A stretch of DNA of 64,000 bases, from contig JAAOMT010000777.1 in assembly GCA_016748015.1 (NCBI GenBank), positions 66,347 through 130,346 on the forward strand, read 5' to 3'. The stretch's first letter is position 1, and the number at the start of each line of letters is the position of its first letter. This DNA comes from Geosiphon pyriformis uo1. Its lineage: Eukaryota > Fungi > Glomeromycota. Under the pieces are notes generated by a model. It did no database searches. It was not told the origin of the DNA and worked only from the letters and a program-made list of their open reading frames with translations. Both the position numbers and the translations under genes were made by a program. Shown in pieces: positions 2,290 through 57,181 of this stretch.

Positions 2290-2350
2290 GAACATTTCAA
2301 CCCAAAAATATAACAAAACCAGAACAATACCAACGAAAATATAACAAAAG

Positions 2351-3733
2351 ATAAACATACAAAAATATCAACAACTGCAACATTATATAAACACTCAATA
2401 GTTCAAGAAAAATTTATCTCAAACAGAATGAAAGAGTATCAAACAACAATTAAAATATTTTATTACTCACCAAAATATACTTTATTGGAAAAATAGAAGA
2501 AATCTAAAGCAACCAATCAGAGTGATCACAGAGCCAGAAAAAGAGACAATATTATTCAACATGCACTCAAATCCAACAGCAGGACACTTTCACAAAGAAG
2601 CAACCATGAAAAAAACCAAAAAAAAATATTATTGGCCATCAATGTATCCAGACATTATTCAATATGTTCAAAATTGTGATGCTTGTCAGTAAAAAGGAGG
2701 TACGAAACCCAATGAACCATTAAGACCAATCAAAGTAGGACAACCATTTGACTGTATTGGAATTGATTTAGTTGGACCATTAACGATCACCAGCAAAGGA
2801 AACAGGTACATAGCAGTAGCTATGGACTATCTCACTAAATGGCCAGAGGCGAAAGCATTTCAAAGAGCGGATGCAGAATCTGTTGCCAAATTTATTCATC
2901 AAGATTTAATTTGTTAACACAGATGTCCAAAGAAATTATTATCAGACCAAGAAACTCATTTTGTGAACAGAACATTAACAGAATTGAGCCAAAGATTTGG
3001 AATTAAGAGACCATTATTATCATCATACTATCCACAAACCAATGAATTAGTCAAAAAATTTAACAGAACATTGTGTGAAGCAATAGCTAAGCTCAGCCAA
3101 GAAAACCAAAATGATTGGGATTTGTTGATATCATCAGTACTATTTGTTTATCAAACAATAAAGCAAGATACTACACAAGCAACACCATTTAAATTAGTAT
3201 ATGGTAGGACAGCAACATTATCAGTGGAAATAGAAGTCAGCACATACCCAACCAAACCAATAACAGAAGAAAATTTCAAAAACACATTGTTGAGAAGAAC
3301 ATATAACTTAATGGAAACATTAGAAAACAAATAACGAAGAGCAGTTGACAACATACAAAGGTCACAAGAAAAACAAAAAAAAAGACATGATAACCAATTA
3401 CCAGATAAACCAGTTGAATTCAAGATTAAAGACAAAGTATTACTATATCATATATAAATAGAAAAACAATGGAGTGGAAAATTGGATCCCAAATGAGATG
3501 GACCATTTCACATAGAAGAAATTCTAGAGAATGGAGCTTACAAATTAAGATTGAATAACAAAATCTTAACCAAAGCAGCACATGGAGATTGACTGAAACC
3601 ATACCACCATATAGCATCATCATTCACCAATAATATTCTACAATTAGAAGTACAGAGAATACTAGTCCAATCAGATAAGATTCTATAAGATCTGGAACCA
3701 ATCATTATTATTGACAACAACATGTCCAATTGA
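2351..3733 (+). pseudogene. stand-alone integrase ORF of element A (start presumed ATG eroded to ATA)
   Basis: MHSNPTAGHF...CDAC zinc finger, IGIDLVGP, LSDQETHF, YPQTNELV core, GPF, C-terminal DLEPIIII. It is in a different frame from RNase H. Confidence 0.85.
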
Positions 3734-3786
3734 TTAACAAAAAAATATATAAAAACATGGTTGACGCGACAGAAAAGATCAGAAAA

Positions 3787-4416
3787 ATGGAAATTATGGA
3801 CAATATCCATTCATTAGCCCAACAAATTTTTCAATTAATCCAACACCAGGAGATGGAAATTACAATCAATCAACAAACCATTTGTTACAAAAATACAGCA
3901 AAGATACCACAAAACAAAGCACAGAAAAGACTTGAAAATGTTGTTAACAAGATCATAACCAAGATAAAATTGGCCATAAAAGAACAACAAATAGTCAAAT
4001 TATACCAAGAACTTACCAGAGAAACTTTGACTTGGTGGATGCAACAATTTCCGAAAAACTATTGTTATTTCCACTTAGAACAACATGTAAATATTCAGAA
4101 TTTGTACGTTGACAAAACAAAATGGTTATTCGACACAACAATACTAAGACAACTAGAATAATTTGTGGGAAAGAACAATCTAATTACACAAGCTTGAGCT
4201 ATTTACTGGCTATATATGGGATTTTAAGACCAACCAGAAATCTTATTCAACACAGCAATAGATACAGTTATGAGTAATCAATTGGAAAAAATGACCAATG
4301 CCCAATTTAAAGAATTACAAACTAAAATAATACAAGTAATACTCGAAAAAGAAGTTCAAGAAATAATTCAAGAAGGGGAATTAAAGGAATAAGATTTTGA
4401 TAGAGCTCAATATTAA
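3787..4416 (+). pseudogene. ORF3 (3' accessory ORF of unknown function) of element A
   Basis: MEIMDNIHSLAQQIF... continues across stops to FDRAQY-TAA at the PPT. Colinear similarity to ORF3 of B and C. Confidence 0.75.
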
Positions 4417-4429
4417 AAGGAGAGAATAA
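4415..4429 (+). other. polypurine tract of element A
   Basis: AAAAGGAGAGAATAA immediately before the LTR start TGTTAC. Confidence 0.8.
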
Positions 4430-4507
4430 TGTTACTTATAGAATATTGGAAATATAGTATTATTAGTCAGTAGATATTAGCCAATCAGATGTAGACATAG
4501 TAAATAT

Positions 4508-10397: not shown

Positions 10398-11379
10398 TGT
10401 TATCAGAGGTTTTTGGTCTCTTTTCTTGAATGTTGTTGATGCCTGTTTGCTGTGAATTCACGTTTCCAGGAAGTAGTTGGATCTTCAGTAACTGAATTTA
10501 TCTTCAAATTATTTCCTATAATTTGAACTTGCTGGGCTTATGAGTGGAATGGCCAATTCCATGCCAGTTGCTTTATATAGTTATGTTGTAGTAAATGTCA
10601 ACTCTTTCCCAGAAATTGCTTGTCTGAAAGCTCACTAAAAATGTGTAGTTACTTTGCTGTGAAAGTTAACTCTTCTACAGGAATCTTGTCTGTAGGCTAC
10701 CCTAATAATTGTAATAAGAAAAGAAAAGAAAAATAAAAGAAATGTAAAAGAAATAGGATTTTATCAAGGGAAACGTTTTTCTATCCAGGCCTGGAGTTAC
10801 TAACAGTTTACTGAAATTGGTAGCTAATCAATTTCAAAACATTAGTTGAGTTTTGGGGATTTTCCACGTGTACTAATTAAAGAATTTGATTTTTCGAATT
10901 ATTTGATATTTATTTCTTTTTTGTGTGTGTAGGAATGGTTTTAAGTGATAAATCTAAAGTAAGATATATTTTCTCAAAGAGAAAAGCTCTTCTTTTATAC
11001 AACTTGTCATAACACTATTCTATGAACTTGAACTTTGCTATTTTCTACAATTTTGCTGAACTAAAGATACATTTTGGCAAACTACAAGTTATTTCTGTGA
11101 ACTATTAGATATTTTGGTGAACTATCAATTATTTTGGCAAATTTCTACAAATTTTGGTGCACTTTTGAATATTACATAGTTCGGAGTATTGCATGATTGA
11201 TTGTCGCAATTAGGTTACATTTGTGTTGTATACAATTTGGGTTATTAATTAAATAATGATTTTGAACATTTTTGCTAATGTAATAAGTGATAATTTGAAA
11301 CAATAATATATGCTAATTAATGATAGGATTTATAAGATAATTTCATGCTAAATAATATCTCTAATTTCATCTGGTAACA
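10398..11379 (-). repeat. 3' LTR of B (982 bp)
   Basis: Direct repeat of 19283-20244; termini TGTTA...TAACA; PPT (rc GAGGAGGAGATTA) at 11380-11392. Confidence 0.95.
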
Positions 11380-11390
11380 TAATCTCCTCC

Positions 11391-12067
11391 TCAAAACTGA
11401 GCTCTGTCAAAGTCCAAGTACTGTCTGTAATTTTCAAATAGTAATCCAAAATTATTGAAAAAATTTGGTCTGAAAATTGTTGAAATTTCAGTTCTGTGAG
11501 CTTTCCAATGTATTGAATCTTCAAAGGTCGTAAAATTGGGTTTTGTAGAACATTTTCACAGATGTAGAATAGGTCATAAAGTCTAAGAGCAGCTTTGAGC
11601 TTGTAGCAACTGTTTGTTGGTCCAGCTGTTGTCTTGAATTTGTTGTGGAGTTGTTTCTGAATAGCTTTTTTTATGAGGTTTGCTGTTGTAAGTTCCAGTT
11701 TCTATTTGTATAGTGTTTTTCCAATGTGAAAATATCTATAGATTGGAGGATATTTAGTGTTTTCTTTATTGAGACACAGTTGAAGTCTTTGTTGAATTGT
11801 AGTATTTGGTGGAATACTAATTAGAATGAGCATTAGGTTTTCTCTTAAAGCAAGCTTTAAAAGTTCTGGCAGATGAATTCCAGAATAACTTCTTGTGTTC
11901 TTCTTATATGGGTGATATTTTTGTGAATTTGGGGCTAAATTTGTAACTACTTCTGTTTGGGTATAATTAATGTGGTTTCCAGTAACAGTAATAGATAATT
12001 TGGGTATTGTTTTTAAAGTTAACATTAGTTTTTGGAATAATTGTTGAATGTTTTGAGGAATAGTCAT
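11391..12067 (-). pseudogene. ORF3 of B
   Basis: MTIPQNIQQL...; one TGG>TAG stop and a 1-nt deletion near the end relative to C. Confidence 0.8.
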
Positions 12068-12183
12068 TATAAGAAATTTGAAATAAAAGAAAATTATTTT
12101 TGGTGTATGGGTTTTTATGTTATTTTTGTTTTGTTTTTGTGAAATTGTTTCTAAATTATAAGAGAATAACTAGTAAAATTAAA

Positions 12184-13569
12184 TTAAGTGTTCAGATTGG
12201 AAGGTTGTTCAATAACAACTATTGGTTCTAAGTTTCGGAGAATATCTTCAGGATTGACTAAAGGGGAATGTATACCAATTTGTGGAATTAATGGTTCAAG
12301 ATTGTTTCTGGAATGATAGTATTTCAAATGATTTCCATGTGCAACTTTTGCTAGAATTTTGTCATCATATCTTAGCTTGTATGATCTATTGCCTAGGACT
12401 TCATGAATAAAAAATAGTCCATCCTATTTATTTTCAAATTTTCCACTCCATTGTTTTTCAGCTTTAGTTCTGTATAAGAGAACTTTGTTTCTGATTTTAA
12501 ATTCATTGGTGACTGAAGACAATTTGTCATCATGCCGTTCTTTTTGTCGAGCTTGGGAGTGTTCAATATGGGTGGGTGCTATTCATTATTTTTCTTCCAA
12601 TGTGTTAAGCAGAGTGTAGACTCTTCACTAAAGTGTTTCTTGGAAATTGTTTTTATCAATTGGTTGTGCTGAGTATGTTTCCACTGTGAAACTAATTGGT
12701 AATGTTGCTGTCCTTTCATAAGTTAAATCAAATGGTGTGTGTTTTGTGGTATCTTGTTTTAGTGTTCTGTATGCTAGCAACACTGATGGAATAAAGATAT
12801 CCCACTCTTGCTTAAAATCGGTTGAGACTTTGGCTAATGACTTACACAATGTTCTATTAAAACGTTCCACAAGTCTGTTTGTTTGTAGATGGTAAGGCGA
12901 AGACAGAGGTCTTTTGACATTGAATCATTCGCAAATTTCTTGTATCAGGTTGTTCACAAAGTGTGTCCCCTGATTGGATAAAAGTTTAATTGGACATCCG
13001 TGTCTACAAATGATATCTTTGTAGATGAAATTTGCTATTGATTTTGCATCTGCTTGTTGAATGGCTCTGGCTTCGGGCCATTTAGTAAGATAGTCTACAG
13101 CTACTGCAATATAATAGTTTCCTTAAGTGGTGATAAATAGTGGTCCAACTAAATCGATACCAACTCGGTCAAAGAGTTGTCCAACTTTGATTGGATTTAA
13201 TGGTTCAGTAGGGCGTGTTCCTTCTTTTCTTTGACAACTATCACAAGATTCAACATATTTGTGAATGTTTTTTCTTATTTGAGGCCAAAAGTAGTATTCT
13301 AGTGTTCTTTGGGTGGTGCTATCTTTTCTGAAGTGTGCTGATGAAGGATCTGAGTGCATGTTGTATAATATGATCTCTTTTTCCTGTTTTTGTATTAATC
13401 TGAGTGGTTTGTTTGGGTTTTTGAAATTTCAATGATAAATAATGTTGTTGTGTAGAAAATATTGTTTGGCTTGTTGTTGTAGTCAATGTTTTTCATTTGG
13501 AGACCAATCTGTTGGGATTGTTAATGATTCCAAATATTGTTTGAGATTGTTGTAGTTTTCCAAATTCAT
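12184..13569 (-). pseudogene. stand-alone integrase ORF of B
   Basis: Own ATG (MNLENYNNLKQYL), HHCC (MHSDPSSAHF...CDSC), VGIDLVGP, MERFN, C-terminal NLEPIVVIEQPSNLNT*. Confidence 0.85.
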
Positions 13570-13620
13570 TGTTTGTTAGCTTTTTTGGTTGGTTAAGTTG
13601 AGTGTTGGTTTTTGTGTTTT

Positions 13621-16600
13621 CTAATCTTGTTTTATTCTGGAGAGACAGTCAACATTGGTGTGGAGTTTTCCTGGTTTGTGATGTACTATATATTGATAGT
13701 TTGCTAGAAATCCTGTTCATCAGGTTTGTTTTACATTCAGCTGAGTATTTTTGTTCTGAAGTCATTTGAGTCCAATATCATCAGTAATAATATCGAATTT
13801 TTTAGGCCTGAGATAAAGGTTGAAATGGTGTAGGGCCCAAATTATGGCTGCTGTTTCTAGTTCTGTGGCAGGGTAGTTTTTCTCAACTGGTTTTAATGTT
13901 TTGCTAGCATAAGCAATTACTCGCTCATTTCCGTTGTCATCTAGTTGTAATAAGATGGCACCAAAAACAGTATATGAAGCATCTGTAGCTAGTTGAAATC
14001 GGTTGCTGAAATCCGGGTAGGCGAGGATTGGAGCTGTTGTCAGTTTTTTCTTGAGAATTTCAAAAGCTTTTTGGTGTTTGGTAGTTTATTTGTATTCAAT
14101 GTTCTTGGTGGTGAGCTGGTTGAGGGATTTTGCAATTTCCGAGAATCCTTTGATAAACTTCCGATAGTAGGATTCTAATCCTATGAATTCTCTTAGTTCT
14201 GTAGTGTTTCGAGGAGTTTTGAAGTTTTTGACAATGCTGATTTTTCCAGGGTTTGGTTTAATTCCATTTTTACTAATGATATGACCAAGGAAGACCAGGC
14301 TTGTTTTTCTAAAGTAGCATTTTTTGATATTGAGTTTTAGTCTTGCTTTTCATAATTGTTGAAAAACTTCTCGCAGATGTTTTAAGTATAATTTGAATGA
14401 TGGAAAATAAACAATAGTATTATCAAGATAAACGACTACTGACTTCCAAAGAAGTCCTTGGTACACAACATCCATTAATCTCTGAAATGTTGCTGGTGCA
14501 TTGCATAATCCGAAAGGCATTACATTGAACTTATAATTTCCACCTTGAGTGGTGAATGCTGTTTTGGGGTGATCTTTGGGATCCATAACAACTTGCCAGT
14601 AACCGCTTTCTAAATCTAGTGTTGAAAAGTATTTGGATTTTCCAAGGGCATCTAATATGTTATCAATTCAGGGAAAGGGATAGGCATCTCCAATTGTAAC
14701 ACTGTTGAGTTGTCAATAGTCAACACAAAATTGTATCTTTTCATTTTTTTTTTAACTAGCACTACAGGTGAAGCCCAAGGACTCATGGAGAGTTGGATGA
14801 GCCCATTGTTAAACATTTGTTGTACTTCTTCTTGGATGAATTGGTGGCTTTCTGGAGCAACTCGATATGCTTGTTGTCTTCTTGGTTTGGCATCTCCTGT
14901 ATAAATTTGGTGTTGGACCAAATTGGTTTTTCCTAAGTCATTGTTGTTTTCAGTAAAGATATCGGCAAATTCTGCAATTAGCTCTTTGAGCTGGCTCCAT
15001 TGTTGTGGTTCAAGTTGTCTCATGTTGATTTGAGATAGTTTTTTTATGACAACATGGTAGTTTTTAGAGCTAGGGTTCAGGTTGATTTTTGGTAGTGAAT
15101 ATCCAATAATTTCAGAGAAATCAGAGACTATTTGGGGTAATTCTTGTTGAAATATATTACTGTGAATAACTCCAATTTCTAAATTATTTAATAAAATTAT
15201 GGGGTAATTATTGGGATTGTAAAAAGTAACTTGCACTTTCTTTGTTCCTTCTGAAATATAAATGTTTGGGATCAAAATATTATGTTCCAAGCAGACTTGT
15301 TTATTGGACTCAAAAATTTGTTGTGTGGTTGTTGGCTTTGGGCAGGTGTAGATTTCCGGATGTTCTCCAAAGAGTGAGATAGTAATTGGTTGTGGAAGTC
15401 TGAGAATCTGGTAGAATTTGTTCTGTGTGTTAAGAGTTATATTAACTGGAATTGTGAATCGTTCAGTTGAACCAAAACCTTGGGTTCCTCTATTGCTTTT
15501 TCTTAATTGTTCTCTTTGATTGACTAGTTGCAAACCTGAAATGTTGATTAGGGGTAGGTAAATAACTTGGGCAATTTTTTCAGCATGTTTGATCTTGAAT
15601 GGTTTGTCAGTTTCATTTTGAAGCATTACTGTTATGTCTCCAGTATATCCAGCGTTAATTATTCCTTCTTTGACATTAATTCCTTTGCTTGCCAGAGAGG
15701 ACCGGGAGGCGATTTGAACCATCGCTTTTGGCGGGATTTCGAATGCAATTTTGAGGTTGATTTTTGTAAGAGATTTGGGTTTGAGAACAAGAGTATCCTT
15801 GCCTGGATATTTTAGGTCATATCCAGCATCAATTTCGTGTGCTTTTTCAGGTTTTATTCCTTGTCTGTTGTTGTTAAGGTATTTAAGTTGTAAAACAGAC
15901 TGATTTTTGATAAGGTAGATGGGTGTTGTTTTAATTTCTTCCGTTTCTTCAGGTTCTCTGAATTCAATTTGATTCTCATCATTTTTGCTGGGCAAGAGAA
16001 TACTAAGAGCATAACATTCAGGACACCATTGTTTATCACAAGGCATAATGCATTCTTCACATAGCCTAATGTTCATTTGCTCTAATCGTTGAATTTGAGC
16101 TTCTTGGATTGGGTAGGTGTGACTTGCAATTTGGTGGTAGACTTCTACTTTGTTTTTATAATTGAAACCAGCTAATTCCATGGTGTATTCAATGTATTCT
16201 GCTTTTTTCATTTGACAAACATCTTTTTTGGTAGCTCTATTAATTAATGCCATTGCTAGGTTGAAAATCATCTTAGCATCATGGGGGTAGTGATAAAGTT
16301 TGTTGAGAGCACTGTTGTATGCCGCATTAAAGGGTGTTCCTCTTTTTACTTTTTCTGAAATTGATAAAGCATATTGGCAGGTCTGATCACAGACTCCTTC
16401 TCTTATGGCTACATCAATCTAATTGCATTCTTCTGGTAGCATATCTCCACAAGTTAAACAAGGGGTGTTGTCCCATTTTTCACTCCTTTTTATTAGATGG
16501 CCCTATCGTTCTCTGTGGCAAGCCTTGCAGTAATAACAAGTATGATTTTCATATTCTTCTTCAGGTGAAATGCAGGCTCCCATTGACGATAGTTTTTTGT

Positions 16601-19281
16601 GGCAGTCCTTACATTTAAGGAGAATATAGGGGCATTGTTTCCTTGGTTCGGGTTTGAGTAAGAAATATTCCATCCAGAGATTTCGGGTTCAGAGTATGAG
16701 GTAAAATGTTCTTGTTCTGTTTCATTGGCCCAGTTGGATGTTGATCCAAGAGCCATAAATGTTTCAATGAGAGGTTTTTCTTTTTCTGGTTCAAATTCAA
16801 AAGCTGGGGCTTTTTTAGAGCATTTGTTGAATGTACCACAAGTGGCAGGTACTCGGGCGTGTTGTTCTTGGTAGAAGATTGTTAATTCTTGTGTTTCCCA
16901 ATTCAAATTAGCATTGGCTTTTTGAAGCCAATCATTTCCGACAAGAGCTTGGTATTGGGCTGCGTCCATTATAAGAACTTTGACTGGAATGATGATTCCA
17001 TCAAGAGTGAACAGAAAATTGTCAATTTCTCCTACTGGGGTCTTTTTCATGCCATCAGCAGTGATGATTACTGTTTGAGCTGGTCGGTTGACATTTTTCT
17101 TTAACTGTTGCATTAACTGGTAGATAATAATGCTTCCGGCAGATCCACTGTCTAGGATTAAGCAAATTGCCTTTCTTTCAACTTCTGCTTCAGTGTACAT
17201 AGTAGTGATTGCTTTTTGTTCATTAGCGGATGTATTGCTAAGCAGGAATGGTGACTTATTTGCTTCGAACTTAAAAGGGAATATATCTGAAAGGTTAGCA
17301 TTTTCAGTAATTTTGGCTGGTGGGATTGTGGTGGGAGTATAGGAAAAGTTTTGTTGTTGTGCTGCAGCTCTACCTTCCAAATGTGCAGTATGGTAAAAAT
17401 TCTGTTCTTTTGGCATTGTTAAATAACTGGGTTGAGTGTGGTAGTGGTTGGGTCTTAGTTGAGTGAAATTTTGGGGAACCAATTGGTTGTTTGAACTGAT
17501 TCTATTGTTGTGTACTTGGTATTGGTTTTGTGATGTGAATTGATTTTGTGTAGTTAGTCTTTGAGCAGGTACTTGATAATGTTGTGTGGGTGGTTGTTGG
17601 TATTGCTGTTGGATTGGCTGTGGGGTGGGCTGATAATAGTTATTTTGGTATTGGGGTTTTGGTGGATAGTAAGCTGGTGGTAGTGGTTGATAATAAGATT
17701 GCTGTGGTAGAGGGTAACGTTAATTACTCTTATTTTGTTGGTCTCATTATAGCTTTCTGCAATCTCTTTTCCAGTGGTCTGAGATTCCACAGTAATGGCA
17801 ATTCTGAGGCTGGTTATTGGAAAGTAGTGCAAAGTTATTTTGATTTCGTCTTTGGGGTGGTTGATATCTTTGGGGTTGCTGTTGTTGTTAATTGGTAAAA
17901 TAGTTTTCAATTTTCTTTGTGAGTTGGTCAATTTTTTCCTCAACTGCTAAGCTGGTTTCTCCAATTGCCAAATTTACAAGTTTTGTGCAATTGGTCTCTT
18001 TCATGGCCATTTCATATCTTTTCGCATGCTGTATGGCAGAGTTCAAATTTTCTGGGGCATGTGAGCGAACCTTTTTAATTAGTTTATCTTTTAGACCAGC
18101 GATAAATTAATCCAAGATTTGAGCATCAGAATAATAATTGTTTGTTTCGAGTTGGTGAATTTGTCTGAAAAGTTTGTTGAATTTCCCAATATAAGTCATA
18201 ACAGATTCGGAGGGTTCTTGTTTGATATTTCGAAAATGGTTGCGAAGGGTGATGGAGGTATTATTGTTGGTAAACTGTTCAAGGAAGGCTGCTTTGAAAG
18301 CGTTTCAATTATTGAATAGGGTGGCCAAGTTTTCAAACCATTCTTCTGCTGTTTCTTTGAGAAAGTAGGGAATTGTTCTTAACATTCTGGCAGCATTCCA
18401 TCCATTTGTATCTCCAGCTTTAGTAACTTAGTCGAGCCATTCTTGGGAACTGGTCTCAATGTCTTCTCCATTAAATTCAGAGATTTTTGTGATGTAGGTT
18501 GTCATTTTGTCTTCTTCATTTTCACTAACTATTGATTTTTCTTCAGATATTATGGATTTGTTTTTTTCGTTTGCTGCTGTCTCAGAATGTTCACTTTGAT
18601 TTTCAGCTAGAAAGTCAAGGAGATTGCAACTAGTTTGAAGGGGTTCTTGTTGTCTGGTGGAACTTCTGAGTGATGTAAAATCTTCTGGTTTTGCAAATCA
18701 ATTTAAGTGTGAATTAGGTGTTTGTGCTTGTGCAAGTGAAGCTGGAAAAGATGTGATAGTAAGTGGAAATTTTGAACTGGTTCCTTGTTCAGGTGTTTGT
18801 AAATGTTTGGCAGTTGTTTTTGGTAGTGTTGGAGTATTTGGGGTAGTATTTGAGTATTGCTTCAATTTGTTTTTGCCTTTGTTGCTTGTTTCTGTTTTCG
18901 ATTCAAAATCAATAGAGTATTGAGACTGCACTGGATATGTTTCTTTACAGTATTTGATAATGTTAAAATTAAGTTTGTGAAAGTAAGTGGCAAGTGTTTC
19001 ACTGTTAAGGTCTTCTGTTCCCAATTGTGAATAGTGCACTAAATTATTGTAGAGGTTGCTTCTAACTTCTGAAATGTTGTAGTTTCCAAAAAGATAATTG
19101 TTGATGCAGTTTTCAATGTATTGGTATACTGATTTTTTGATGACTTCAATTCCGTCTGGAATGTTGAATCTTTGCTTGCAGTGGGTGTAAATTGATTGGT
19201 AATACTCTAGAGTTGTTGCGTCTGGTGTGGTCACTACTTTGAATTTGTTGTTGCTGTCTTATTTCCATGGGAGAGCACCAA
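13621..19281 (-). pseudogene. gag-PR-Cys-rich-dUTPase-RT-RNaseH of B
   Basis: Gag, CCHC knuckle, LILDSGSAGS protease, DAGYDL/ASRSSL/RGTQGFGST dUTPase, RT, RH ending NVDCLSRIKQD-TAG. Confidence 0.9.
19262..19280 (-). other. primer binding site of B
   Basis: TGGTGCTCTCCCATGGAAA begins 2 nt after the LTR CA. Confidence 0.85.
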
Positions 19282-19282
19282 A

Positions 19283-20244
19283 TGTTACTGGAGGTTTTTG
19301 GTCTTTTTTTTTGAATGTTGTCAATGTCTGTTTGCTGTGAATTCACGTTTCCAGGAAGTAGTTGGACCTCCAGTAACTGAATTTATCTTCAAATTATCTC
19401 CTATAATTTGAACTTGCTGGGCTTATGAGTGGAATAGCCAATTCCATACCAGTTGCTTTATGTAGTTATGTTGTAGTAAACATCAACTCTTTCCTAGGAA
19501 TTGCTCGTCTAGAAGCTCACTAAAAATGTGTAGTTACTTTGCTGTGAAAGTTAACTCTTCTACAGGAATCTCATCTGTAGGCTACCCTAATGATTGTAAT
19601 AAGAAAAGAAAAGAAAAATAAAAGAAATGTAAAAGAAATAGGATTTTATCAAGGGAAATGTTTTTCTATCCAGGTCTGGAGCCACTAACAGTTTACTGAA
19701 ATTGGTAGCTAATCAATTTCAAAATGTTAGTTGGGTTTTGGGGATTTTTCACGTGTAATAATTAAAGAATTTGGTTTTTCGAATTATTTGATATTTATTT
19801 CTTTTTTGTGTGTATAGGAATGGTTTTAAGTGATAAATCTAAAGTAAGATGCATTTTCTCAAAAAGAGAAGCTCTTCTTTTATACAACTTGTCGTAACAC
19901 TATTCTATGAACTTGAATTTTGCTATTTTTTACAATTTTGCTGAACTAAAGATATATTTCGGCAAACTACAAGTTATTTCTGTAAACTATCAATTATTTC
20001 GGCAAATTTCTACAAATTTCGGCAAACTTTTAAATGTTACATAGTTTGGGGTATTGCATGATTGATCATTGCAATTAGGTTACATTTGTGTTGTGTACAA
20101 TTTGGGTTATTAATTAAATAATGATTTCAGACATTTTTGCTAATGTAATAAGTGATAATTTGAAATGATAATATATGCTAATTAATGATAGGATTTATAA
20201 GATAATTTCATGCTAAATAATATCTCTAATTTCGTCTGGTAACA
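19283..20244 (-). repeat. 5' LTR of B (962 bp)
   Basis: Direct repeat of 10398-11379 lacking one 20-bp internal repeat unit. Confidence 0.95.
19876..19884 (-). promoter_or_regulatory. TATA box in the 5' LTR of B
   Basis: TATAAAAGA on the minus strand, conserved in all four B/C LTRs, downstream of ~20-bp U3 repeats. Confidence 0.6.
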
Positions 20245-39734: not shown

Positions 39735-41167
39735 GATAGTAGTATTTAGGCCAATGGTGGTCTTGTAATTGAACAGAAACAGTTTAGAGATATCATACTG
39801 AATGGTAAAAATTCTTTTGAAAAAACTTTTGACTCTTTTTTGGGAATTTTGGATGAAGAAAAGAAAGAATTTGCTTTTTTATTTTCAGTTATATTTTAAA
39901 ATATTTATTTAAAATCTATAAATTAAAAAATAAATTAAAAAAACATTAAATAAAATATATTTTAACCAAAAATTTGGCCAAAAACAACTATTTAAATTTA
40001 TAATTTACTATTATAAATGATTATATAAAAAATAAAACATTTTTTTTAACATAAAAATTAACAAAATAAGACTAATTAATTTAAAAAAACATATATTTTT
40101 AGAATTTATTAAAAAATTTTTTAAGTAAATTATATTTTAATTTAAAATATTTAAAATATTTATAATTTTTACTAAAAATACAAATAATATAATAAATTTA
40201 ATTTAAATTTTTTTTAATTTTAAAATAAATAATTATATATTATATTTTATAATAATATATATAATTTATAATGTAAATTTTTTAGATTTATTTAAAAGAT
40301 TATTATAAATAATAATATACATAAACAAAATAAACAATACAATTTTAAATTTATTTTTTTGTTTTTATATTGTTTAATTTTTATTAGTCTTAATTATATA
40401 TATAAAATTTTTATTAATTAAAAAAATATTTTAAAGCCAATAAATTAATCTAATTAAATTTAACATATTTTATTATAGCTTTTTATTATAATCTAATTAG
40501 TTATTATTAGATTAATATAATTTTATTAAATTTAAATAAAACTAAAATAATTATTTTTTTAAAAATATTTATGAATTTTTTTTTGAAAATTATAACTTAA
40601 TTTAAATATATTTTTTGTTTTTCAAGATTTTTGTTTATTTAGATTTTTTTATTTTTAATTAATGTTATAATTTTTTGCAAATTTTTTTTAAAAATAATAT
40701 AAATCTAATAATTTTTTAAAATTATTTATTATAAAAAATAATTTTTTAACAATTATTAACAAATTAATATCTAAAATTTAAAGTAATAAAATAAAAATAA
40801 AAAAACTATTATTTTATTTGTATTTATTTTTTTAGGTTTAAAATATTTGATTAAAAGTATAAAAAAGTCTTACTTTTATTATTTGTTTTTTAATTAATAT
40901 TAATATTTAAAAAAAAATTTATCTTTTTTACAAAATTAGTTTTTAAATTAATTAATACAAATATTATCTAAAATTATTTTTAAAATTAAAATTATTTTAT
41001 TATTTAAGTTTTTAATATTTTTAACCAACTCTTTAAATTTTTACGTAAAAATATTATTTATAAAACCATAAATAGTTCTATTTATTGACTTTTTTTAATT
41101 ATGATATTATTAATAATAGCTCTTAAATTTTTTTTTTTTTAAGNNNNNNNNNNNNNNNNNNNNCACC

Positions 41168-46600: not shown

Positions 46601-47375
46601 AAGTTGGTGGCTCTTAATGCTTCTGTTGGTGCAATTCTGGGGAAGTTAGATCAGTTGTGCACTAGTTTGAGTTTTTAGGCATCTTCTTCTTCCCAATAAT
46701 TGACCTGGTTTGGAAAGTGGCTACATGCAATATGAAGAGCATAAACAATCCTGCCAAGCAGAAAGATATTGTTCAATGGCACAAAAATGCGGGTAACATG
46801 ATTTCTGTGGTTACTGAAACAAAGTTGAAAAGAAAAGTCCGTCCTTGGATTATGAACAAATTTGATGGTGTTCGGGTGTTTACCTCTGGTTTGGAGTTTA
46901 GTTATTTGGGTACAGGAGTTGCCATAATTATGGATGTTTCTCTGGCAAAGCATGTGTGCAAGATTTCTGAGGTGCTCAGCTGGCTCATCTCTGTGAAATT
47001 GCTTTTCAAAAATAAACTTTCAGTAACAGTTTTGGGCTTATATGCAGGTGCCACCTTGGAAAAGAGACTGGCTCACTCTCATGTTGTCAATTTAATGGTG
47101 GCTGAAGCTTTAAATGGCAGTACTTTTGTTGTTCTTGGTGGCGACTTTAACAAAAATGATTCTGGCTGTAGTGCGAACTTCAAGAAATGTCTGGATTTGG
47201 GTTTGTTTGATTCTTTATATGGTTCTTTTTTGCACAGGCTTCCCACATGGTCCAATTCAAGGGGTGTTCATAAGTGCATAGACTTTATATTAGTTAGCAA
47301 TAGTCTTCACAGTTTTTTTTTTAACCAGTGTGTGTTGTGTCCGGCCAAATTTTTTGATTCTGATTACTTGGCTGT

Positions 47376-48356
47376 TGTTACTGGAGGTTTTTGGTCTCTT
47401 TTCTTGAATTTTGTTGATGCCTGTTTGCTGTGAATTCACATTTCCAGGAAGTAGTTGGACCTTCAGTAACTGAATTTATCTTCAAATTATCTCCTATAAT
47501 TTGAACTTACTGGACTTATGAGTAGAATGGCCAATTCCGTGCCAGTTGTTTTATGTAGTTACGTTGTAGTAAACATCAACTCTTTCCCAAGAATTGCTTG
47601 TCTGGAAGCTCACTAAAATGTGTAGTTACTTTGCTGTGAAAGTCAACTCTTCTACAGAAATCTCGTCTGTAGGCTACCCTAATGATTGTAATAAAAAAAG
47701 AAAAGAAAAATAAAAGAAATGTAAAAGAAATAGAATTTTGTCAAGAGAAACGTTTTTCTATCCAGGCCTGGAGTCACTAACAGTTTACTGAAATTGGTAG
47801 CTAATCAATTTCAAAACGTTTAGTTGGTTTTTGGGGATTTTCCACGTGTACTAATTAAAGAATTTGGTTTTTCAAATTATTTGATATTTATTTCTTTTTG
47901 TGTGCATAGGAATGGTTTTAAGTGATAAATCTAAAGTAAGATATATTTTTTCGAAGAGAGAAGCTCTTCTTTTATACAACTTGTCGTAACACTATTCTAT
48001 GAACTTGAACTTTGCTATTTTCTACAATTTTGCTGAACTAAAGATAAATTTTGGTGAACTACAAGTTATTTCTGCAAACTATTAGATATTTTGGTGAACT
48101 ATCAATTATTTCGGCAAATTTCTACAAATTTTGGCGAACTTTTGAATGTTACATAGTTCGGAGTATTGCATGATTGATCATCGCAATTAGGTTACATTTG
48201 TGTTGTGTACAATTTGGGTTATTAATTAAATGATGATTTTGGACATTTTTACTAATGTAATAAGTGATAATTTGAAACGATAATATATGCTAATTAATGA
48301 TAGGATTTATAAGATAATTTTATGCTAAATAATATTTTTAATTTCATCTGGTAACA
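47376..48356 (-). repeat. 3' LTR of C
   Basis: Repeat of the B LTRs, TGTTAC...GTAACA. Confidence 0.95.
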
Positions 48357-48367
48357 TAACCTCCTTC

Positions 48368-49045
48368 TCAAGACTGAGCTCCGTCAAAAGTCCAAGTACT
48401 GTCTGTAATTTCCAGATAGTAATCCAAAATTATTGAAGAAATTTGGTCTAAAAATTGTTGAAATTTCAGTTCTGTGAGCTTTTTAATGTATTGAATCTTC
48501 AAAGGTCATAAAATTGGGTTTTGTAAGACATTTTCACAGGTGTGGAATAGGTTATAAAGTTTAAGAGCAGCTCTGAGCTTGTAGTGACTGTTTGTTGGTC
48601 CAGCTGTTATTTTGAATTCGTTGTGGAGTTGTTTCTGAATAGCTTTTTTTGTGAGATTTGCTGTTGTAAGTTTCAGTTTCCATTTGTAGAGTGTTTTTCC
48701 AATGTGAAAATATCTATAGATTGGAGGATATTCAGTGTTTTTCTTATTGAGACACAGTTGAAGTCTTTGTTGAATTGTAGCATTTGGTGAAATACTAATC
48801 AGAGTGAGCATTAGGTTTTTTCTTAAAGCAAGCTTTAAAAGTTCTGGCAGGTGAATTCCAGAATAACTTCTTGTGTTCTTTTTATATGGGTGATATTTTC
48901 GTGAATTTGGGGCTAAATTTGTAACTACTTCTGTTTGGGTATAATTAATGTGGTTTCCAGTAACAGTAATAGATAATTCAGGTATTGTTTTTAAAGCTAA
49001 CATTAGTTTTTGAGATAATTGTTGAATGTTTTGAGAAATAGTCAT
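48368..49045 (-). pseudogene. ORF3 of C (226 codons, one internal CGA>TGA stop)
   Basis: MTISQNIQQL...TWTFDGAQS-TGA, ending at the PPT. Confidence 0.8.
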
Positions 49046-49161
49046 TATAAGAAATTTGAAATAAAAGAAAATTATTTTTGGTGTATGGGTTTTTATGTTA
49101 TTTTTGTTTTGTTTTTGTGAGATTGTTTCTAAATTATAAGGGAATAACTAGTAAAATTAAA

Positions 49162-50543
49162 TTAGTTCAGGTTGGAAGGTTGTTTAATGACAACTATTGG
49201 TTCTAAGTTTCGGGGAATATCTTCGGGATTGACTAAAAGGGAATATATACCAATTTGTGGAATTAATGGTTCAGAATTGTTTCTGAAATGATAGTGTTTC
49301 AAACAATCTCCATGTGCAACTTTTGCTAGGATTTTGTCATCAAGTTTTAGCTTGTATGATCCGTTGCCTAGAACTTCATGGATAAAGAATGGTCCATCCC
49401 ATTTATTTTCAAATTTTCCACTCCATTGTTTTTCAGCTTTAGTTCTGTGTAAAAGAACTTTGTTTCTGATTTTAAATTCATTGGTGACTGGAGGCGATTT
49501 GTCATCATGCTGTTCTTTTTGTCGAGCTTGGAAGTGTTTAATATGGTGGCTGCTATTCGTCGTTTTCTTTCCAATATGCTAAGCAGAGTGTAGGCTCTTC
49601 GCTGAAGCATTTCTTGGAAATTGTTTTCATTGATTGGTTGTGCTGGGTATGTTTCCACTGTAAAACTAATTGGTAATGTTGCTGTCCTTTCGTAAGTTAA
49701 ATCAAATGGTGTGTGTTTTGTGGTATCTTGTTTTAGTATTCTGTATGCTAGCAACACTAATGGAATAAAGATATCCCACTCTTGCTCAAAATCGGTTGAG
49801 ACTTTGGCTAATGACTTACACAATGTTCTGTTAAAATGTTCTACAAGTCTGTTTGTTTGTGGATAGTAAGGCAAAGACAGAGGTCTTTTGACATTGAATT
49901 GTTCACAAATTTTTTGTATCAGGTTGTTCACAAAGTGTGTCCCCTGATTGGATAAAAGTTCAATTGGACATCCGTGTCTACAAATGATATCTTCATAGAT
50001 GAAATTTGCTACTGATTTTGCATCTGCTTGTTGAATGGCTCTGGCTTCAGGCCATTTAGTAAGATAGTCTACAGCTACTGCAATATAATGGTTTCCTTGA
50101 ATGGTGATAGATAGTGGTCCAACTAAATCGATACCAACTCGGTTAAAGAGTTGTCCAACTTTGATTGGATTTAATGGTTCAGTAGGGCATGTTCCTTCTT
50201 TTCTTTGACAACTATCACAAGATTCGACATATTTGTGAATGTTTTTTCTTATTCGAGACCAAAAGTAGTATTCTAGTGTTCTTTGGATGGTGCTATCTTT
50301 TCTGAAGTGTGCTGATGAAGAATCTGAGTGCATGTTGTATAATATGATCTCTTTTTCCTGTTCTTGTATTAATCTGAGTGGTTTGTTTGGGTTTTTGAAA
50401 TTTCAATGATAAATAATGTTGTTGTGTAGAAAATATTGTTTGGCTTGTTGTTGTAGTCAATGTTTTTTATTTGGAGACCAATCTGTTGGGATTGTTAATG
50501 ATTCCAAATATTGTTTGAGATTGTTGTAGTTTTCCAAATTCAT
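49162..50543 (-). pseudogene. stand-alone integrase ORF of C
   Basis: Own ATG, HHCC, DDE core in ORF 49368-50333, WDGPF, NLEPIVVI. Confidence 0.85.
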
Positions 50544-50601
50544 TGTTTGTTGGCTCTTTTGGTTGGTTAAGTTGAGTGTTGGTTTTTGTGGGTTTTTTTT
50601 T

Positions 50602-53600
50602 CTAATCTTGTCTCATTCTGGAAAGACAGTCAACATTGGTGTGGAGTTTTCCTGGTTTGTGATGTACTATGTATTGATAGTTTGCTAGAAATCCTGTCCA
50701 TCGGGTTTGTTTTGCATTCAGCTGAGTATTTTTGTTCTGAAGCCATTTGAGTCCAATATTATCAGTAATAATATCGAATTTTTTAGGCCTGAGATAAAGG
50801 TTGAAGTGGTGTAGGGCCCAAATTACGGCTGTTGTTTCTAGTTCTGTGGCAGGGTAGCTTTTCTCAGCTGGTTTTAATGTTCTGCTAGCATAAGCAATTA
50901 CTTGCTCATTTCCGTTGTCATCTAGTTGTGATAAAATGGCATCAAAAGCAGTATATGAAGCATCTGTAGTTAGTTGAAATCAGTTGCTGAAATCCGGGTA
51001 GACAAGGATTGAAGCTGTTATCAGTTTTTTCTTGAGAATTTCAAAAGCTTTTTGGTGTTCGGTAGTCTATTTGTATTCAACATTTTTGGTGGTAAGCTGG
51101 TTGAGGGGTTTTGCAATTTCCGAGAATCTTTTGATAAACTTCCAATAGTAGGATGCTAATCCTATAAATCCTTTTAGTTCTGTAGTGTTTCGAGGAGTTT
51201 TGAAGTTTTTGACAATACTGATTTTTTCAGAGTTCGGTTTAATTCCATTTTTACTAACAATATGACCAAGGAAGACCAGGCTTGTTTTTCCAAAGTAGCA
51301 TTTTTTGATATTGAGTTTTAGTCTTGCTTTTTGTAATTGTTGAAAAACTTCTCGCAGATGTTTTAAGTGTAATTTGAACGATGGAAAATAAACATCAGTA
51401 TTGTCAAGATAAATGACTACTGACTTCCAAAGAAGTCCTTGGTACACAACATCCATTAATCTCTGAAATGTTGTTGGTGCATTGCATAATCTGAAAGGCA
51501 TTACATTGAACTTATAATTTCTACCTTGGGTGGTGAATGCTGTTTTGGGGTGATCTTTGGGATCTATAGCAACTTGCCAGTAACAGTTTTCTAAATCTAG
51601 TGTTGAAAAGTATTTGGATTTTCCAAGGGCATCTAACATGTCATCAATTCGGGGAAAGGGGTAGGCATCTCCAATTGTAACACTGTTGAGTTGTCAATAG
51701 TCAACACAAAATCATATCTTTCCATTTTTCTTTTTAACTAGTACTACAAGTGAAGCCCAAAAACTCATGGAGGGTTGAATGAGCCTATTGTTAAACATTC
51801 ATTGTACTTCTTCTTGGATGAATTGGTGGCTTTCTGGAGCAATTCAATATGCTTGTTGTCTTTTTGGTTTGGCATCTCCTGTATAAATTTGGTGTTAGAC
51901 CAAATCGGTTCTTCCTAAGTCATTGTTGTTTTTAGCAAAAATATTGGCAAATTCTGCAATTGGCTCTTTGAGCTGGCTCCGTTGTTGTGATTCAAGTTGT
52001 CCCATGTTGATTTGAGATAGTTTTTCTATGACAACATGGTAGTTTTCAGAGCTAGAATTTGGGTTGATTTTTAGTAGTGAATGTCCAATAATTTCAGAGA
52101 AATTGGAGACTGTTTGGGGTAATTCTTGTTGAAATATATTACTGTGAATAACTTCAATTTCTAAATTATTTAATAAAATTATGGAATAATTATTGGGGTT
52201 GTAAAAAGTAACTTGGACTTTTTTTGTTCTTTCTGGAATATAAATGTTTGGGATCAAAATATTATGTTCCAAGCAGACTTGTTTATTGGACTCAAAAATT
52301 TGTTGTGTGGTTGTTGGCTTTGGGCAGGTGTAGATTTCCAGATGTTCTCCAAAGGGTAAGATGGTAATTGGTTGTAGAAGTCTAAGAATCTGGTGGAATT
52401 TGTTCTGTGTGTTAAGAGCTATATTAACTGAAACTGTAAATTGTCCAGTTGAACCAAAACCTTGGGTTTCTCTATCGCTTTTTCCTAATTGTTTTCTTTG
52501 ATTGACTAGTTGCAAACCCGAAATGTTAATTAGGGATAGATAAATAGCTTGGGCAATTTTTTCAGCATGTTCGATCTTAAATGATTTGTCAGTTTCATTT
52601 TGAAGCATCACTGTTATGTCTCCAGTATATCCAGCGTTGATTATTCCTCCTCTGACATTAATTTCTTTGCTTGCCAGAGAGGACCGGGAGATGATTTGAA
52701 CCATCGCTCCTAGTGGGATTTCGAGTGCAATTTTGAGGTTGATTTTTGTGAGAAATTTAGGTTTGAGAACAAGAGTATCCTTGTTTGGATATCTTAGGTC
52801 ATATCCAGCATCAATTTCGTGTGTTTTTTCGGGTTTTATTCTTTGTTTATTGTTGTTGAAGTATTTAAGTTGTAAGGCAGGCTGATTTTCAATAAGGTAA
52901 ATAGGTGTTGTTTCAATTTTTTCCATTGCTTCAGGTTTTCCAAATTCAATTTTGTTTTCATCATTTTCGCTGAGCAAGGGAATACTAAAAGCGTAGCATT
53001 CAGAACACCACTGTTCATCACAAGACATAATGCATTTTTCACATAGCCTAATGTTTATTTGCTCTAATCATTGAATTTGAGCTTTTTGTGTTGGGTAGGT
53101 GTGACTTGCAATTTGGTGGTAGACTTCTACTTCGTCTTCATAATCAAATCCAGCTAATTCCATGGTGTATTCAATGTATTCTGCTTTCTTTATTTGATGA
53201 ACATCTTCTTTGGTAGCTCTATTAATTAATGCCATTGCTAGGTTGAAAATCATCTCAGCATTATGGGAATAATGATAAAGTTTGTTGAGAGCACTGTTGT
53301 ATGCCGCATTAAAGGGTGTTCCTCTTTTTACTTTTTCTGAAATTGATAAAGCATATTGGTAGATCTGATCACAGACTTTTCTTCTCATGGCTATATCAAT
53401 CCAATTGCATTCTTCTGGTAGCATATCTCCACAAGTCAAACAAGGAGTGTTGTCCCATTTTCCACTTCTTTTTATTAGATGGCCCCATCATTCTCTGTAG
53501 CAAGCCTTGTAGTAATAACAAGTATGATTTTCATATTCTTCTTCAGGTGAAATGCAGGCTCCCATTGACAATAGTTTCTTGTGGCAGTCTTTACATTTAA

Positions 53601-56265
53601 AGAGAATATAGGAGCGTTGTTTTTTTGGTTTGGGTTTTGAGTAAGGGATATTCCATCCAGAGGTTTTAGGTTCAGAATGTGGAGTAAAATATTCTTGTTC
53701 TGTTTCATCGGCCCAGTTAGATGTTAATCCAAGAGCCATAAATGTTTCAATGAAGGGTTTTTCCTTTTTTGGTTCAAATTCAAAAGCTGGGGCTTTTTCA
53801 GAGTGTTTGTTGAATGTACCACAAGTGGCAGGTACTCAGGTGTGTTGTTCTTGGTAGAAGATTGTTAATTCTTGTGTTTTCCAATTCAGATTAGCATTGG
53901 CTTTTTGAAGCCAATCATTTCTGACGAGAGCTTAATACTGGGCTGCATTCATTACAAGAACTTTGACTGGAATGGTGATTCCATCAAGAGTGAACGGAAA
54001 ATTGTCAATTTCTCCTACTGGGGTCTTTTTCATGCTATCAGCAGTAATAATTACTGTTTGAGCTGGTCGGTCAACATTTTTCTTTAACTGTTGCATTAAC
54101 TGGTAGATAATAATGCTTCCGGCGGATCCACTGTCTAGGATTAAGCAAATTGCCTTTCCTTCAACTTCTGCTTTAGTGTACATAGTAGTGATTGCTTTTT
54201 GTTCATTGGCGGATGCATTGCTAAGCAGGAATGGTGACTCATTTGCTTCGAACTTAAAAGGGAATATATCTGAAAGGTTAGCGTTTTCAGCGATTTTGGC
54301 TGGTGGAATTGTGGTGGGAGTATAGGAAGAGTTTTGTTGTTGTGCTGCAGCTCTACCTTCCAAATGTGCAGTATAGTGAAAATTCTGTTCTTCTGGCATT
54401 GTTAAATAACTGGGTTGAGTGTGGTAATGGTTGGGTCTTGGTTGAGTGGAATTTTGGAGAACCAATTAATTGTTTGAACTGATTCTATTGTTGTGTATTT
54501 GGTATTGGTTTTGTGGTGTAAATTGATTTTGTGTAATCAGTCTTCGAGCAGGTACTTGATAATGTTGTGTGGGTGGTTGTTGGTATTGCTGTTGAATTGG
54601 CTGTGGAGCAGGCTGATAATAGTTATTTTGGTATTAAGGTCTTGGTGGATAGTAAGCTGATGGTGGTAGTTGATAATAAGATTGCTGTGATGGAGGGTAA
54701 CGTTGATTACTCCTATTTTGTTGGTCTCATTGTAGCTTTCTGCAATCTCTTTTCCAGTGGCCAGAAATTCCACAGTAATGGCAATTCTGAAGCTGGTTAT
54801 TGGAAAGTGATGCAAAGTTATTTTGATTTTGTCTTTGGAGTGGTTGATATCTTTGGGGTTGCTGTTGTTGTTGATTGGTAAAATAGTTTTCAATTTTCTT
54901 TGTGAGTTGGTCAATTTTTTCCTCAGCTGCTAAGCTGGTTTCTCCAATTGCCAAATTTACAAGTTTTGTGTGATTGGCCTCTTCCATGGCCATTTCGTAT
55001 CTTTTCGCATGTTGTATGGCAGAGTTCAAATTTTCTGGGGCATGTGGGCAAATCTTTTTAATTAGTTTATCTTTTAGGCCAGTGATAAATTGATTCAAGA
55101 TTTGAGCATCAGAATAATAATCATTTGTTTCGAGTTGGCAAATTTGTCTGAGAAGTTTGTTGAATTTCTCAATATAAGTCATAACAGATTTGGGGGGTTC
55201 TTGTTTGATATTTTGAAAATGATTGCGAAGGGTGATAGAGGTATTATTGTCAGTGAACTGTTCAAGGAAGGCTGCTTTGAAAGTGTTCCAATCATTGAAT
55301 GAGATGGCCAAGTTTTCAAACCATTCTCTTGCTATTCTTTTAAGAAAGTAAGAAATTGTTCTTAACATTCTGGCAGCATTCCATTCATTTGTATCTCCAG
55401 CTTTAGTAACTTGGTTGAGCTATTCTTGGAAACTGGTCTCAATGTCTTCTCCATTAAATTCAGGAATTTTTGTGATGTAGGTTGTCATTTCGTCTTCTTC
55501 GTTTTTGCTAACTATTGATTCTTCTTCAGATATTTTGGAGTCATTTTCTTCATTTGCTGCTGTCTCAGAGTGTTCACTTTGATTTTCAGCTAGAAAGTCA
55601 AGGAGATTGGAACTAGTTTGAAGGGGTTCTTGTTGTCTAGTGGGACTTCTGAGTGATGTAAAATCTTCTGGTCTTGCAAATTGATTCAAGGGTGAATTAG
55701 ATATTTGTGCTTGTGCAAGTGAAGCTGGAAAAGGTGTAATAGTAAGTGGAAATTTTGAACTGGTTCCTTGTTCAGGTGTTTGTAAATGTATGACAGTTGT
55801 TTTTGGTAGTGTTGGAGTATTTGGGGTGGTTCTTGAGTATTGCTTCAATTTGTTTTTGTCTTTGTTGCTTGTTTCTGTTTTCGATTCAAAATCAATAGAG
55901 TATTGAGACTGCACTAGATATGTTTCTTCACAGTATTTAATAATGTTAAAATTAAGTTCATGAAAGTAAGTGGCAAGTGTTTTACTGTTAAGGTCTTCAG
56001 TTCCCAACTGTGAATAGTGTACTAAATTATTATAAATGTTGCTTCTAACTTCTGTGATATTGTAATTTCCAAAAAGATAATTGTTGATGCAGTTTTCAAT
56101 GTATTGGTATACTGATTTCTTGACAACTTCAATTTTGTCTGAAATGTTGAATCTTTGCTTGCAGTGGGTGTAAATTGATTGGTAATACTCTAGAGTTGTT
56201 GCATCTGGTGTGGTCACCACTTTTGAAGTTGTTTTTGCTGTGTTGTTTCCGTGGAAGAGCACCAA
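50602..56265 (-). pseudogene. gag-PR-Cys-rich-dUTPase-RT-RNaseH of C (single frame)
   Basis: ORF fragments starting at 56265, 55368, 54465, 53739, 53439, 53028 and 51639 are all in one frame; CHYCGISGHWKRDC; ends SRMRQD-TAG. Confidence 0.9.
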
Positions 56266-56266
56266 A

Positions 56267-57181
56267 TGTTACTGGAGGTTTTTGGTCTCTTTTCTTAAAT
56301 ATTGTTAATGTTGATTTGCTGTGAATTCACGTTTTCAGGAAGTAGTTGAATCTCCAATAACTGAATTTATCTTCAAATTATCTCCTATAATTTGAACTTG
56401 CTGGGCTTATGAGTGGAATGGCCAATTCCGTGCCAGTTGCTTTATGTAGTTATGTTGTAGTAAACGTCAACTCTTTCCCAGGAATTGCTTGTCTGGAAGC
56501 TCACTAAAAAATGTGTAGTTACTTTGCTGTGAAAGTTAACTTTTCTACAAGAATCTTGTCTGTAGGCTATCCTAATGATTGTAATAAGAAAGAAAGAAAA
56601 AATAACAGAAATGTAAAAGAAATAGAATTTTATCAAAAGAAACGTTTTTCTATCCAGGCCTGGAGTCACTAACAGTTTACTGAAATTGGTAGCTAATCAA
56701 TTTCAAAATGTTAGTTGGGTTTTGGGGATTTTCCAAGTGCAACAATTAAAAAATTTGGTTTTTCGAATTATTTGATATTTATTTCTTTTTGTGTACATAG
56801 GAATGGTTTAAGTGATAAATCTAAAATAAGATATATTTTCTCGAAGAGAGAAGCTCTTCTTTTATACAACTTGTCGTAACACTATTCTATGAACTTGAAC
56901 TTTTCTATTTTCTACAATTTTGTTGAACTAAAGATATATTTCGGCGAACTACAAATTATTTCTGCAAATTATTAGATATTTCAGTGAACTATCAATTATT
57001 TCAGTGAATTTCTACAAATTTCAGCGAACTTTTGAATGTTACATAATTTGGGGTATTGCATGATTGATCATCGCAATTAGGTTACATTTGTGTTGTGTAC
57101 AATTTGGGTTATTAATTAAATGATAATTTCGGACATTTTTGCTAATATAATAAATAATATCTTTAATTTTGTCTGGTAACA
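56267..57181 (-). repeat. 5' LTR of C (915 bp, ~65-bp deletion near its start)
   Basis: Repeat of 47376-48356; PBS TGGTGCTCTTCCACGGAAAC adjacent. Confidence 0.95.

Follow-up and report, generated by a model that had tools for sequence, protein, structure and literature searches.

The stretch of DNA analyzed here (64,000 nucleotides from Geosiphon pyriformis, called the window in what follows) contains three Ty3/gypsy elements, A, B and C, each with a sense-oriented open reading frame, ORF3, located between integrase and the PPT and 3′ LTR (Table 1). In a Pfam scan, the order of the coding regions was gag-protease-dUTPase-RT-RNase H-integrase, with gag present, the succession protease, RT, RNase H, integrase preserved and the dUTPase placed between protease and RT. 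In B and C, LTRs with TG...CA ends, a PBS and a PPT were all present; A is cut by the start of the window. B and C represent the same family (92.5% identity over 9.8 kb), and within each of them the 5′ and 3′ LTRs are about 93% alike. The gag-pol of C reads as a single frame, apart from stops and small indels. All the window copies are decayed, the internal stops of ORF3 being four in A, one in B and one in C. In both B and C, the distance from the integrase stop to the start of ORF3 was 119 nt. When the window was searched with ORF3 profiles, these three copies were found and no others.

Table 1. Positions in the window of ORF3, of the elements that carry it and of the associated features.
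Feature	Position	Strand	Remarks
Element A, 3′ part	1..4430	+	dUTPase-like stretch, RT, RNase H, integrase, ORF3, PPT; 3′ LTR from 4430
ORF3 of A	3787..4416	+	Divergent family; 4 internal stops; in-frame upstream ATG at 3757
Element B	10398..20244	-	LTRs 10398-11379 and 19283-20244; target-site duplication ATGA
ORF3 of B	11348..12067	-	239 codons; one premature stop; overlaps PPT and LTR start
3′ LTR of C	47376..48356	-	93% identical to the 5′ LTR of C
Family-typical ORF3 C-terminal frame	48325..48387	-	Through PPT into 3′ LTR; out of frame in C
PPT of C	48360..48369	-	
ORF3 of C	48368..49045	-	Premature TGA at 48508-48506; ends FDGAQS* in this copy
GAGCTCA motif of C	48375..48381	-	25 nt before the LTR
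4-base run in C	48386..48389	-	One base longer than in B
A/T-rich spacer, integrase stop to ORF3 ATG of C	49046..49164	-	119 nt
Decayed gag-pol of C	49162..56268	-	gag with zinc knuckle, protease, dUTPase, RT, RNase H, integrase; no chromodomain match
5′ LTR of C	56267..57181	-	Followed by PBS-like TGG tract

Other features of the window were recorded. No target-site duplication is seen in the flanks of C (47371–47375 and 57182–57186), in contrast to B, which is bordered by ATGA at each end; recombination between two insertions may have given rise to C. The insertion site of B lies in a LINE-like element with endonuclease, RT and RNase H (7899–10397 and 20247–24535), of which an uninterrupted relative, 77–79% identical, lies at 33198–39913. 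A tandem array of about six 48-nt units (4879–5244) is found downstream of the start of the LTR of A. Three related repeats of 1.3–1.4 kb, two of them inverted, occupy positions 25563–26962, 28141–29412 and 31384–32792, and contain RRM and zinc-knuckle matches, typical of LINE ORF1. Between protease and dUTPase there is a Cys/His-rich stretch (53068–53835 in C, 16418–16700 in B), with no Pfam match on the part scanned.

The integrase ends in a GPY/F-type SH3 region followed by a short conserved tail. Chromodomain matches were absent from the integrase frames that were scanned; for C and the metagenome contig L001, the tails were read by eye. The tail extends 25–30 residues past the SH3-like region (window 49162–49260 and 12184–12280), in the place of a chromodomain, and an EPI-hydrophobic motif closes it in A, B, C, family F and the metagenomic locus L002.

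Concerning the ORF3 frames themselves, in the first 630 nt they contained 5 (one terminal), 1 and 1 stops in A, B and C, respectively, versus 8–20 in the other five frames; as the stops are far fewer, the ORF3 frame goes beyond what is expected by chance. The presence of an ORF between integrase and PPT in the three elements had been proposed in an earlier, sequence-only reading of the window. The frames and the peptides quoted there could be read as described, with the difference that the end of the B frame shifts from 11391 to 11348, since the frame passes through the PPT and reaches about 30 nt into the LTR. The different ending of C, FDGAQS*, is due to the presence of one extra base at 48386–48389 compared to B. 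Considering the B/C homologues, the 120 listed of 190 matches were 72 with the long PPT-LTR end, two with the GAQ-frame end, and 46 truncated or spliced models, and a PPT-frame peptide end like that of B occurs in two further metagenomic proteins. In read contigs of run X1, one base was missing at 48386 (18 contigs) or at 48387 (eight contigs). So, both junction lengths may exist.

Six motif pairs had been presented as colinear between A and B/C. The peptides stand as written, but the terminal pair, FDRAQY*/FDGAQS*, was misread, as it results from the one-base insertion in C together with a conserved DNA motif. This motif, GAGCTCA, is located 25–27 nt before the 3′ LTR in A (4403–4409, 27 nt before the LTR), B (11398–11404), C and L001 (L001:3092–3098), in whichever ORF3 frame, and the LTRs of these families do not align. 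Being kept regardless of the reading frame, GAGCTCA is most likely a cis element, probably a signal for reverse transcription or packaging.

The ORF3 proteins of A and B/C are very divergent, yet homologous, as the sequence-only reading had maintained. Compared as single sequences, their similarity was weak (BLASTP E 0.017), while the comparison of family alignments gave an hhalign E of 3.2e-5 over 180 columns. In addition, the B/C profile scored an A-family protein with 19.7 bits, the best of 2000 shuffles reaching 7.2 bits. A non-significant alignment of A with B/C had been named in advance as evidence against the gene; the result with profiles was significant.

Homologues were abundant in one organism. 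The search with the C frame matched 190 proteins among 219 candidates, and all the 120 listed were G. pyriformis hypothetical proteins, at most 91% identical; with the A frame, 81 of 117 matched, all from G. pyriformis. When 1.84 billion representatives were searched with a profile, 112 matches were obtained; the identities of 15 matched proteins corresponded to 11 from G. pyriformis and four metagenomic ones. A wider profile gave 60 matches (58 from G. pyriformis and two from ENA). The resulting set consists of at least five Geosiphon families plus three metagenomic lineages, mostly 15–40% identical. In the protein and profile searches, every named homologue was from Geosiphon pyriformis and none from other fungi; for P0236, an intact relative of ORF3, a Mucoromycota cluster of 98 members appears in the ESM Atlas at 0.90. 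Relatives of ORF3 were not found in metagenome contigs searched with one alignment (A3), in viral contigs or in plasmids. P0295 is a distant ORF3 fragment on a 612-nt contig.

The association of ORF3 with retroelements was also observed outside the window. L001 contains RT, RNase H and integrase, a 316-nt spacer and an intact ORF3 of 230 codons, followed by the same PPT-TGTTACC junction as in the window. In L002, the integrase tail is followed by an extra ORF of about 128 codons and then by ORF3; the second extra ORF of L002 (L002:425–811) had no Pfam match, and its best PHROGs match was only at E 0.04. Among 337 retrieved proteins that match the ORF3 profile, 36 gene models matched integrase also, in 33 of them with integrase upstream, and they belonged to three families. 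The spacer between integrase and ORF3 varies from 24 to 316 nt across lineages. ORF3 is kept in most copies of a family and across related families, the pattern that characterizes an aORF.

The dN/dS values obtained by comparing B and C were 1.10 for ORF3, 1.21 for RT-RNase H and 1.56 for integrase. A dN/dS near 1 had also been named in advance as evidence against a conserved gene; formally, ORF3 displays such a value, yet the RT-RNase H and integrase values are alike, and because of this the B-versus-C pair cannot test selection. Forty of the 41 changes in ORF3 were transitions, as were 681 of the 733 differences across the whole element, where CpG is depleted (observed/expected 0.3). The B-versus-C dN/dS reflects post-insertion decay and says nothing on selection.

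Comparisons between lineages are more informative in this respect. Eight lineages retain a colinear frame of 210–245 codons and a hydrophobic core. The columns kept in most of them are, with P0236 numbering, Tyr107, two aromatics at 109–110, Gly113, Gly145, Asn148, Arg158, Phe163, Leu170, Gly184, Thr187 and Phe191; a basic residue at 154 occurs in the five Geosiphon families only. Between lineages, second codon positions were the best kept (0.48–0.60 versus 0.35–0.45 at third positions), although the protein-guided alignment favors second positions. ORF3 changes faster than pol (27–30% versus 49–57% identity between L001 and the window elements), and the LTRs of A, B/C and L001 gave no real blastn match to one another. 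From the occurrence of ORF3 in the same place in lineages with unalignable LTRs, and from the confident fold obtained from co-variation, we infer that ORF3 is an old, non-env accessory gene maintained by long-term selection, as had been advanced from the sequence. Its divergence, faster than that of pol and accompanied by unalignable LTRs, is as expected of a protein that tracks a changing LTR target.

With respect to the nature of the ORF3 product, no transmembrane stretch was detected in any of six representatives (highest 19-residue Kyte–Doolittle mean 1.04), nor did hydropathy reveal in them a hydrophobic N-terminal stretch. As no transmembrane stretch is present, ORF3 is not env, in agreement with the sequence-only reading. 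No viral fusion glycoprotein was matched in Pfam, in the PDB sequence search or in the viral and PDB fold searches. The net charge is near neutral (pI 5.8–9.3 in six proteins). The AlphaFold model of P0236, run with 33 sequences (mean pLDDT 82, pTM 0.66), depicts a soluble helical protein with a helix at 11–24, a hairpin at 29–42, a linker, and helices at 60–72, 88–96, 105–122, 129–144, 149–163, 167–171, 180–185 and 188–223. The helical core of the model includes a pair of helices with a G-K-x-N turn between them, a conserved Arg being on the second. A first model, run with 14 sequences, was poor (pLDDT 45), and Foldseek returned nothing with it.

The fold of the 33-sequence model was not matched by Foldseek with E < 0.001 in the viral or PDB libraries, nor by VIA with Z ≥ 5 among 48,161 chains (best Z 4.3), the N-terminal module being barely probed in both cases. 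The VIA rows with Z 3.4–4.3 included a filamentous virus capsid protein, the CHD1 C-terminal domain, ORC, sigma F, Spo0J, ParB and KorB, amid unrelated helical proteins. The DNA-binding domains of Spo0J, ParB and KorB and the sigma-factor HTH (Z 3.4–3.9, rmsd 2.4–5.5, 56–96 residues aligned) were tied with those unrelated proteins, and many helical protein-binding scaffolds were also among the weak neighbors.

Sequence families gave a similar picture. Pfam matched 0 families to the C frame at E 0.01, and only scattered weak matches were obtained with sets of 14 and 9 relatives. The best PHROGs match of seven ORF3 proteins was to a family of unknown function (E 0.0012), with nothing coherent among the results, and the PDB sequence search returned importin-5 only (E 0.027 and 0.24). 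In NCBIfam, FtsQ was matched by eight closely related members of the 33 tested (best E 0.00046), which was judged to be noise. A confident match to a known env or accessory family, which had also been considered adverse to the proposal of a novel gene, was thus absent from Pfam, NCBIfam, PHROGs, PDB and the fold searches.

DUF1016_N (PF17761) was rejected as a relative of ORF3: a single member gave 12.9 bits, versus a cut-off of 32.8, over residues 109–173 (Pfam E 0.12). In the ESM Atlas, DUF1016_N appeared at 0.85 for one family member. Profile alignments were built with 28 of 30 loci for the ParB HTH and 24 of 30 loci for DUF1016_N. The comparison of the ORF3 profile with those of the ParB/KorB HTH (PF17762) and DUF1016_N remained within block-shuffled controls, with scores of 14.2 and 16.4 versus shuffle maxima of 16.7 and 19.1 and, in a further run, 9.1 and 14.2 versus 16.0 and 19.5. 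The ParB-HTH and DUF1016_N alignments matched each other (E 4.5e-5), and at one locus (G021:C10:273–674, L098) both profiles matched the same stretch; the profiles suggest that DUF1016_N may contain a ParB-type helix-turn-helix.

Our preferred interpretation, to which we give a probability of roughly 0.4, is that ORF3 encodes an LTR-binding regulator acting in trans. The predicted soluble helical protein would bind the LTR DNA of its own element and, once bound, would in trans switch the element on or keep it unsilenced. As a stop and a spacer of 24–316 nt divide ORF3 from pol, the protein would come from a separate message, spliced or internally started. The window copies are dead, and intact copies elsewhere would supply the protein. 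The interpretation is favored by the HTH-like helix pair with its conserved Gly, Asn and Arg, by the faint DNA-binding fold neighbors, by a pace of divergence that follows the LTRs, and by a host lineage that silences transposable elements; in the related fungus Rhizophagus these carry CG methylation and are a source of small RNAs (bioRxiv 2021.03.30.436303). On the other hand, the lack of a fold match at Z 5, the ParB and DUF1016_N scores within shuffles and the near-neutral charge speak against LTR binding. Nucleic-acid binding and anti-silencing are plausible on the basis of weak hints; DNA binding, and the LTR as its target, are guesses.

Other interpretations can be considered for a soluble protein encoded next to integrase. 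ORF3 could be an integration-targeting or nuclear-import adaptor, which would bind integrase and chromatin and replace the missing chromodomain. Chromoviruses are described as most of the fungal Gypsy elements (PMC3248453), and here the integrase, with its GPY/F-type SH3 region and short tail, shows no chromodomain match and has ORF3 as the next gene. It seems an unlikely role, however, as ORF3 is unfused to integrase, the spacer ranges from 24 to 316 nt and another ORF intervenes in L002. The fast divergence of ORF3 fits also a host-defense antagonist that would bind host proteins or small RNAs (RNAi or methylation machinery) instead of element DNA. Such a protein could well diverge fast with a kept fold, have a near-neutral charge and find helical protein-binding scaffolds among its weak fold neighbors, and silencing of transposable elements by methylation and small RNAs is described in related fungi (bioRxiv 2021.03.30.436303). 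Nevertheless, no family likeness rose above noise in Pfam, NCBIfam, PHROGs or PDB, and the families within one host differ by 60–85%, which seems more than expected for one shared host target, so that we take this role as improbable too. Distinctly less probable is the capture of a viral protein, coat or nucleocapsid, that would wrap the element RNA and aid its movement through non-septate hyphae. Gypsy elements acquire viral genes in the env slot (PMC5408684), the top VIA row was a filamentous archaeal virus capsid protein (Z 4.3, rmsd 2.9, 66 residues aligned), and the closterovirus coat protein (PF01785) was the first ESM Atlas match for P0236 (0.91, 138/256 features). But in the latter case the recognition value of 2119 was under the threshold of the tool, with fewer than 170 shared features, another ORF3 family member gave different Atlas matches, the closterovirus coat was absent from the listed Pfam and fold matches, and the search of the viral fold library had no coat protein among its 50 best matches (lowest E 0.012).

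Two more interpretations find less room. The sequence-only reading had suggested, among other roles, a translational transactivator suited to a polycistronic RNA. ORF3 is indeed a downstream cistron, and two ORFs follow integrase in L002, but the proposal is unsupported because gag-pol, as seen in C, forms one polyprotein frame that decay has interrupted; besides, there is no family match and a factor encoded in the last cistron would need its own expression route. We deem it very improbable. Finally, ORF3 could have no function and be carried along passively, or could result from an A-rich strand bias plus a cis-acting sequence, since the three window copies are broken, dN/dS between B and C is 1.10 and the last seven codons are explained by a DNA motif. 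The persistence in eight lineages of the colinear frame of 210–245 codons with its hydrophobic core, despite unalignable LTRs, the intact ORF3 of L001 and the confident fold go against this possibility, which we consider largely refuted and the least credible of all.

Several features make the ORF3 family tractable: eight lineages are available, some metagenomic members are intact, the structural model is confident and the list of conserved residues is short. In practice, hundreds of G. pyriformis "hypothetical proteins" correspond to the ORF3 transposon gene and not to host genes. Should ORF3 turn out to be an LTR-binding regulator, fungi would provide a case of a regulatory gene carried by a retrotransposon, and this gene could contribute to the LTR load of G. 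pyriformis, where LTR elements make up 41.2% of the genome (PMC11952901). A more ambitious version, rather doubtful as a whole, would be an old fungal Ty3/gypsy clade with a family-specific LTR-binding anti-silencing or transactivator protein of uncatalogued helical fold, a counterpart of VANC or of retroviral regulatory proteins, that helped LTR elements to fill about 41% of the Geosiphon genome.

No description of the ORF3 gene was found in the open-access literature searched. Extra ORFs in the env slot are already known; the ORF3 genes, real and old, make up an accessory family without a name in fungal Ty3/gypsy elements, and their predicted helical fold is unmatched. As a functional model, it can be compared to the VANC protein of VANDALs, which are plant DNA transposons. 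The VANC proteins of Arabidopsis are encoded by the element, bind non-coding DNA of their own family and counter silencing (PMC5735166, PMC10398659). The likeness to ORF3 would lie in the functional model alone, with no sequence or fold link found. DUF1016_N and the ParB/KorB/Spo0J HTH have a run of helices that may resemble that of ORF3 (Z 3.4–3.8, tied with unrelated helical proteins), but ORF3 has no attached nuclease or ParB-N domain. For YhcG, a helical N-terminal domain without a known function has been described (PMC1189080).

Closer in genomic context are the extra ORFs of other LTR elements. The role of conserved non-env extra ORFs is presented as an open question, and Gag and Pol are thought to be enough for an LTR retrotransposon (PMC7264820). 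The plant aORFs treated in that article resemble ORF3 in slot, orientation, retention in most copies of a family and obscure origin. However, the sense aORFs are described there as env-like, some with transmembrane segments, which ORF3 lacks, and the candidates for nuclear or regulatory functions (Grande gene23, Retand and the fungal Boty) are antisense, while ORF3 is sense (PMC7264820). In fungi, a survey of Gypsy elements mentions an additional ORF ("add. ORF") of unknown function, comparable to ORF3 by description, and PosPlaTy3-5 has its dUTPase between protease and RT, the same as the window elements (PMC2864245). That survey is centered on chromoviruses, and neither "Glomus" nor "ORF3" appears in its main text. 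The bdelloid rotifer LTR elements provide another parallel, since a non-env ORF3 occurs there in dUTPase-bearing Ty3/gypsy-like elements, as it does here, and rotifer ORF3s are typically expressed from spliced messages (PMC5408684). The rotifer ORF3s are recognizable proteins (GDSL esterase, DEDDy exonuclease, coiled-coil, TM) that were gained family by family (PMC5408684). Unlike them, the ORF3 described here has no known domain and is common to all the related lineages seen.
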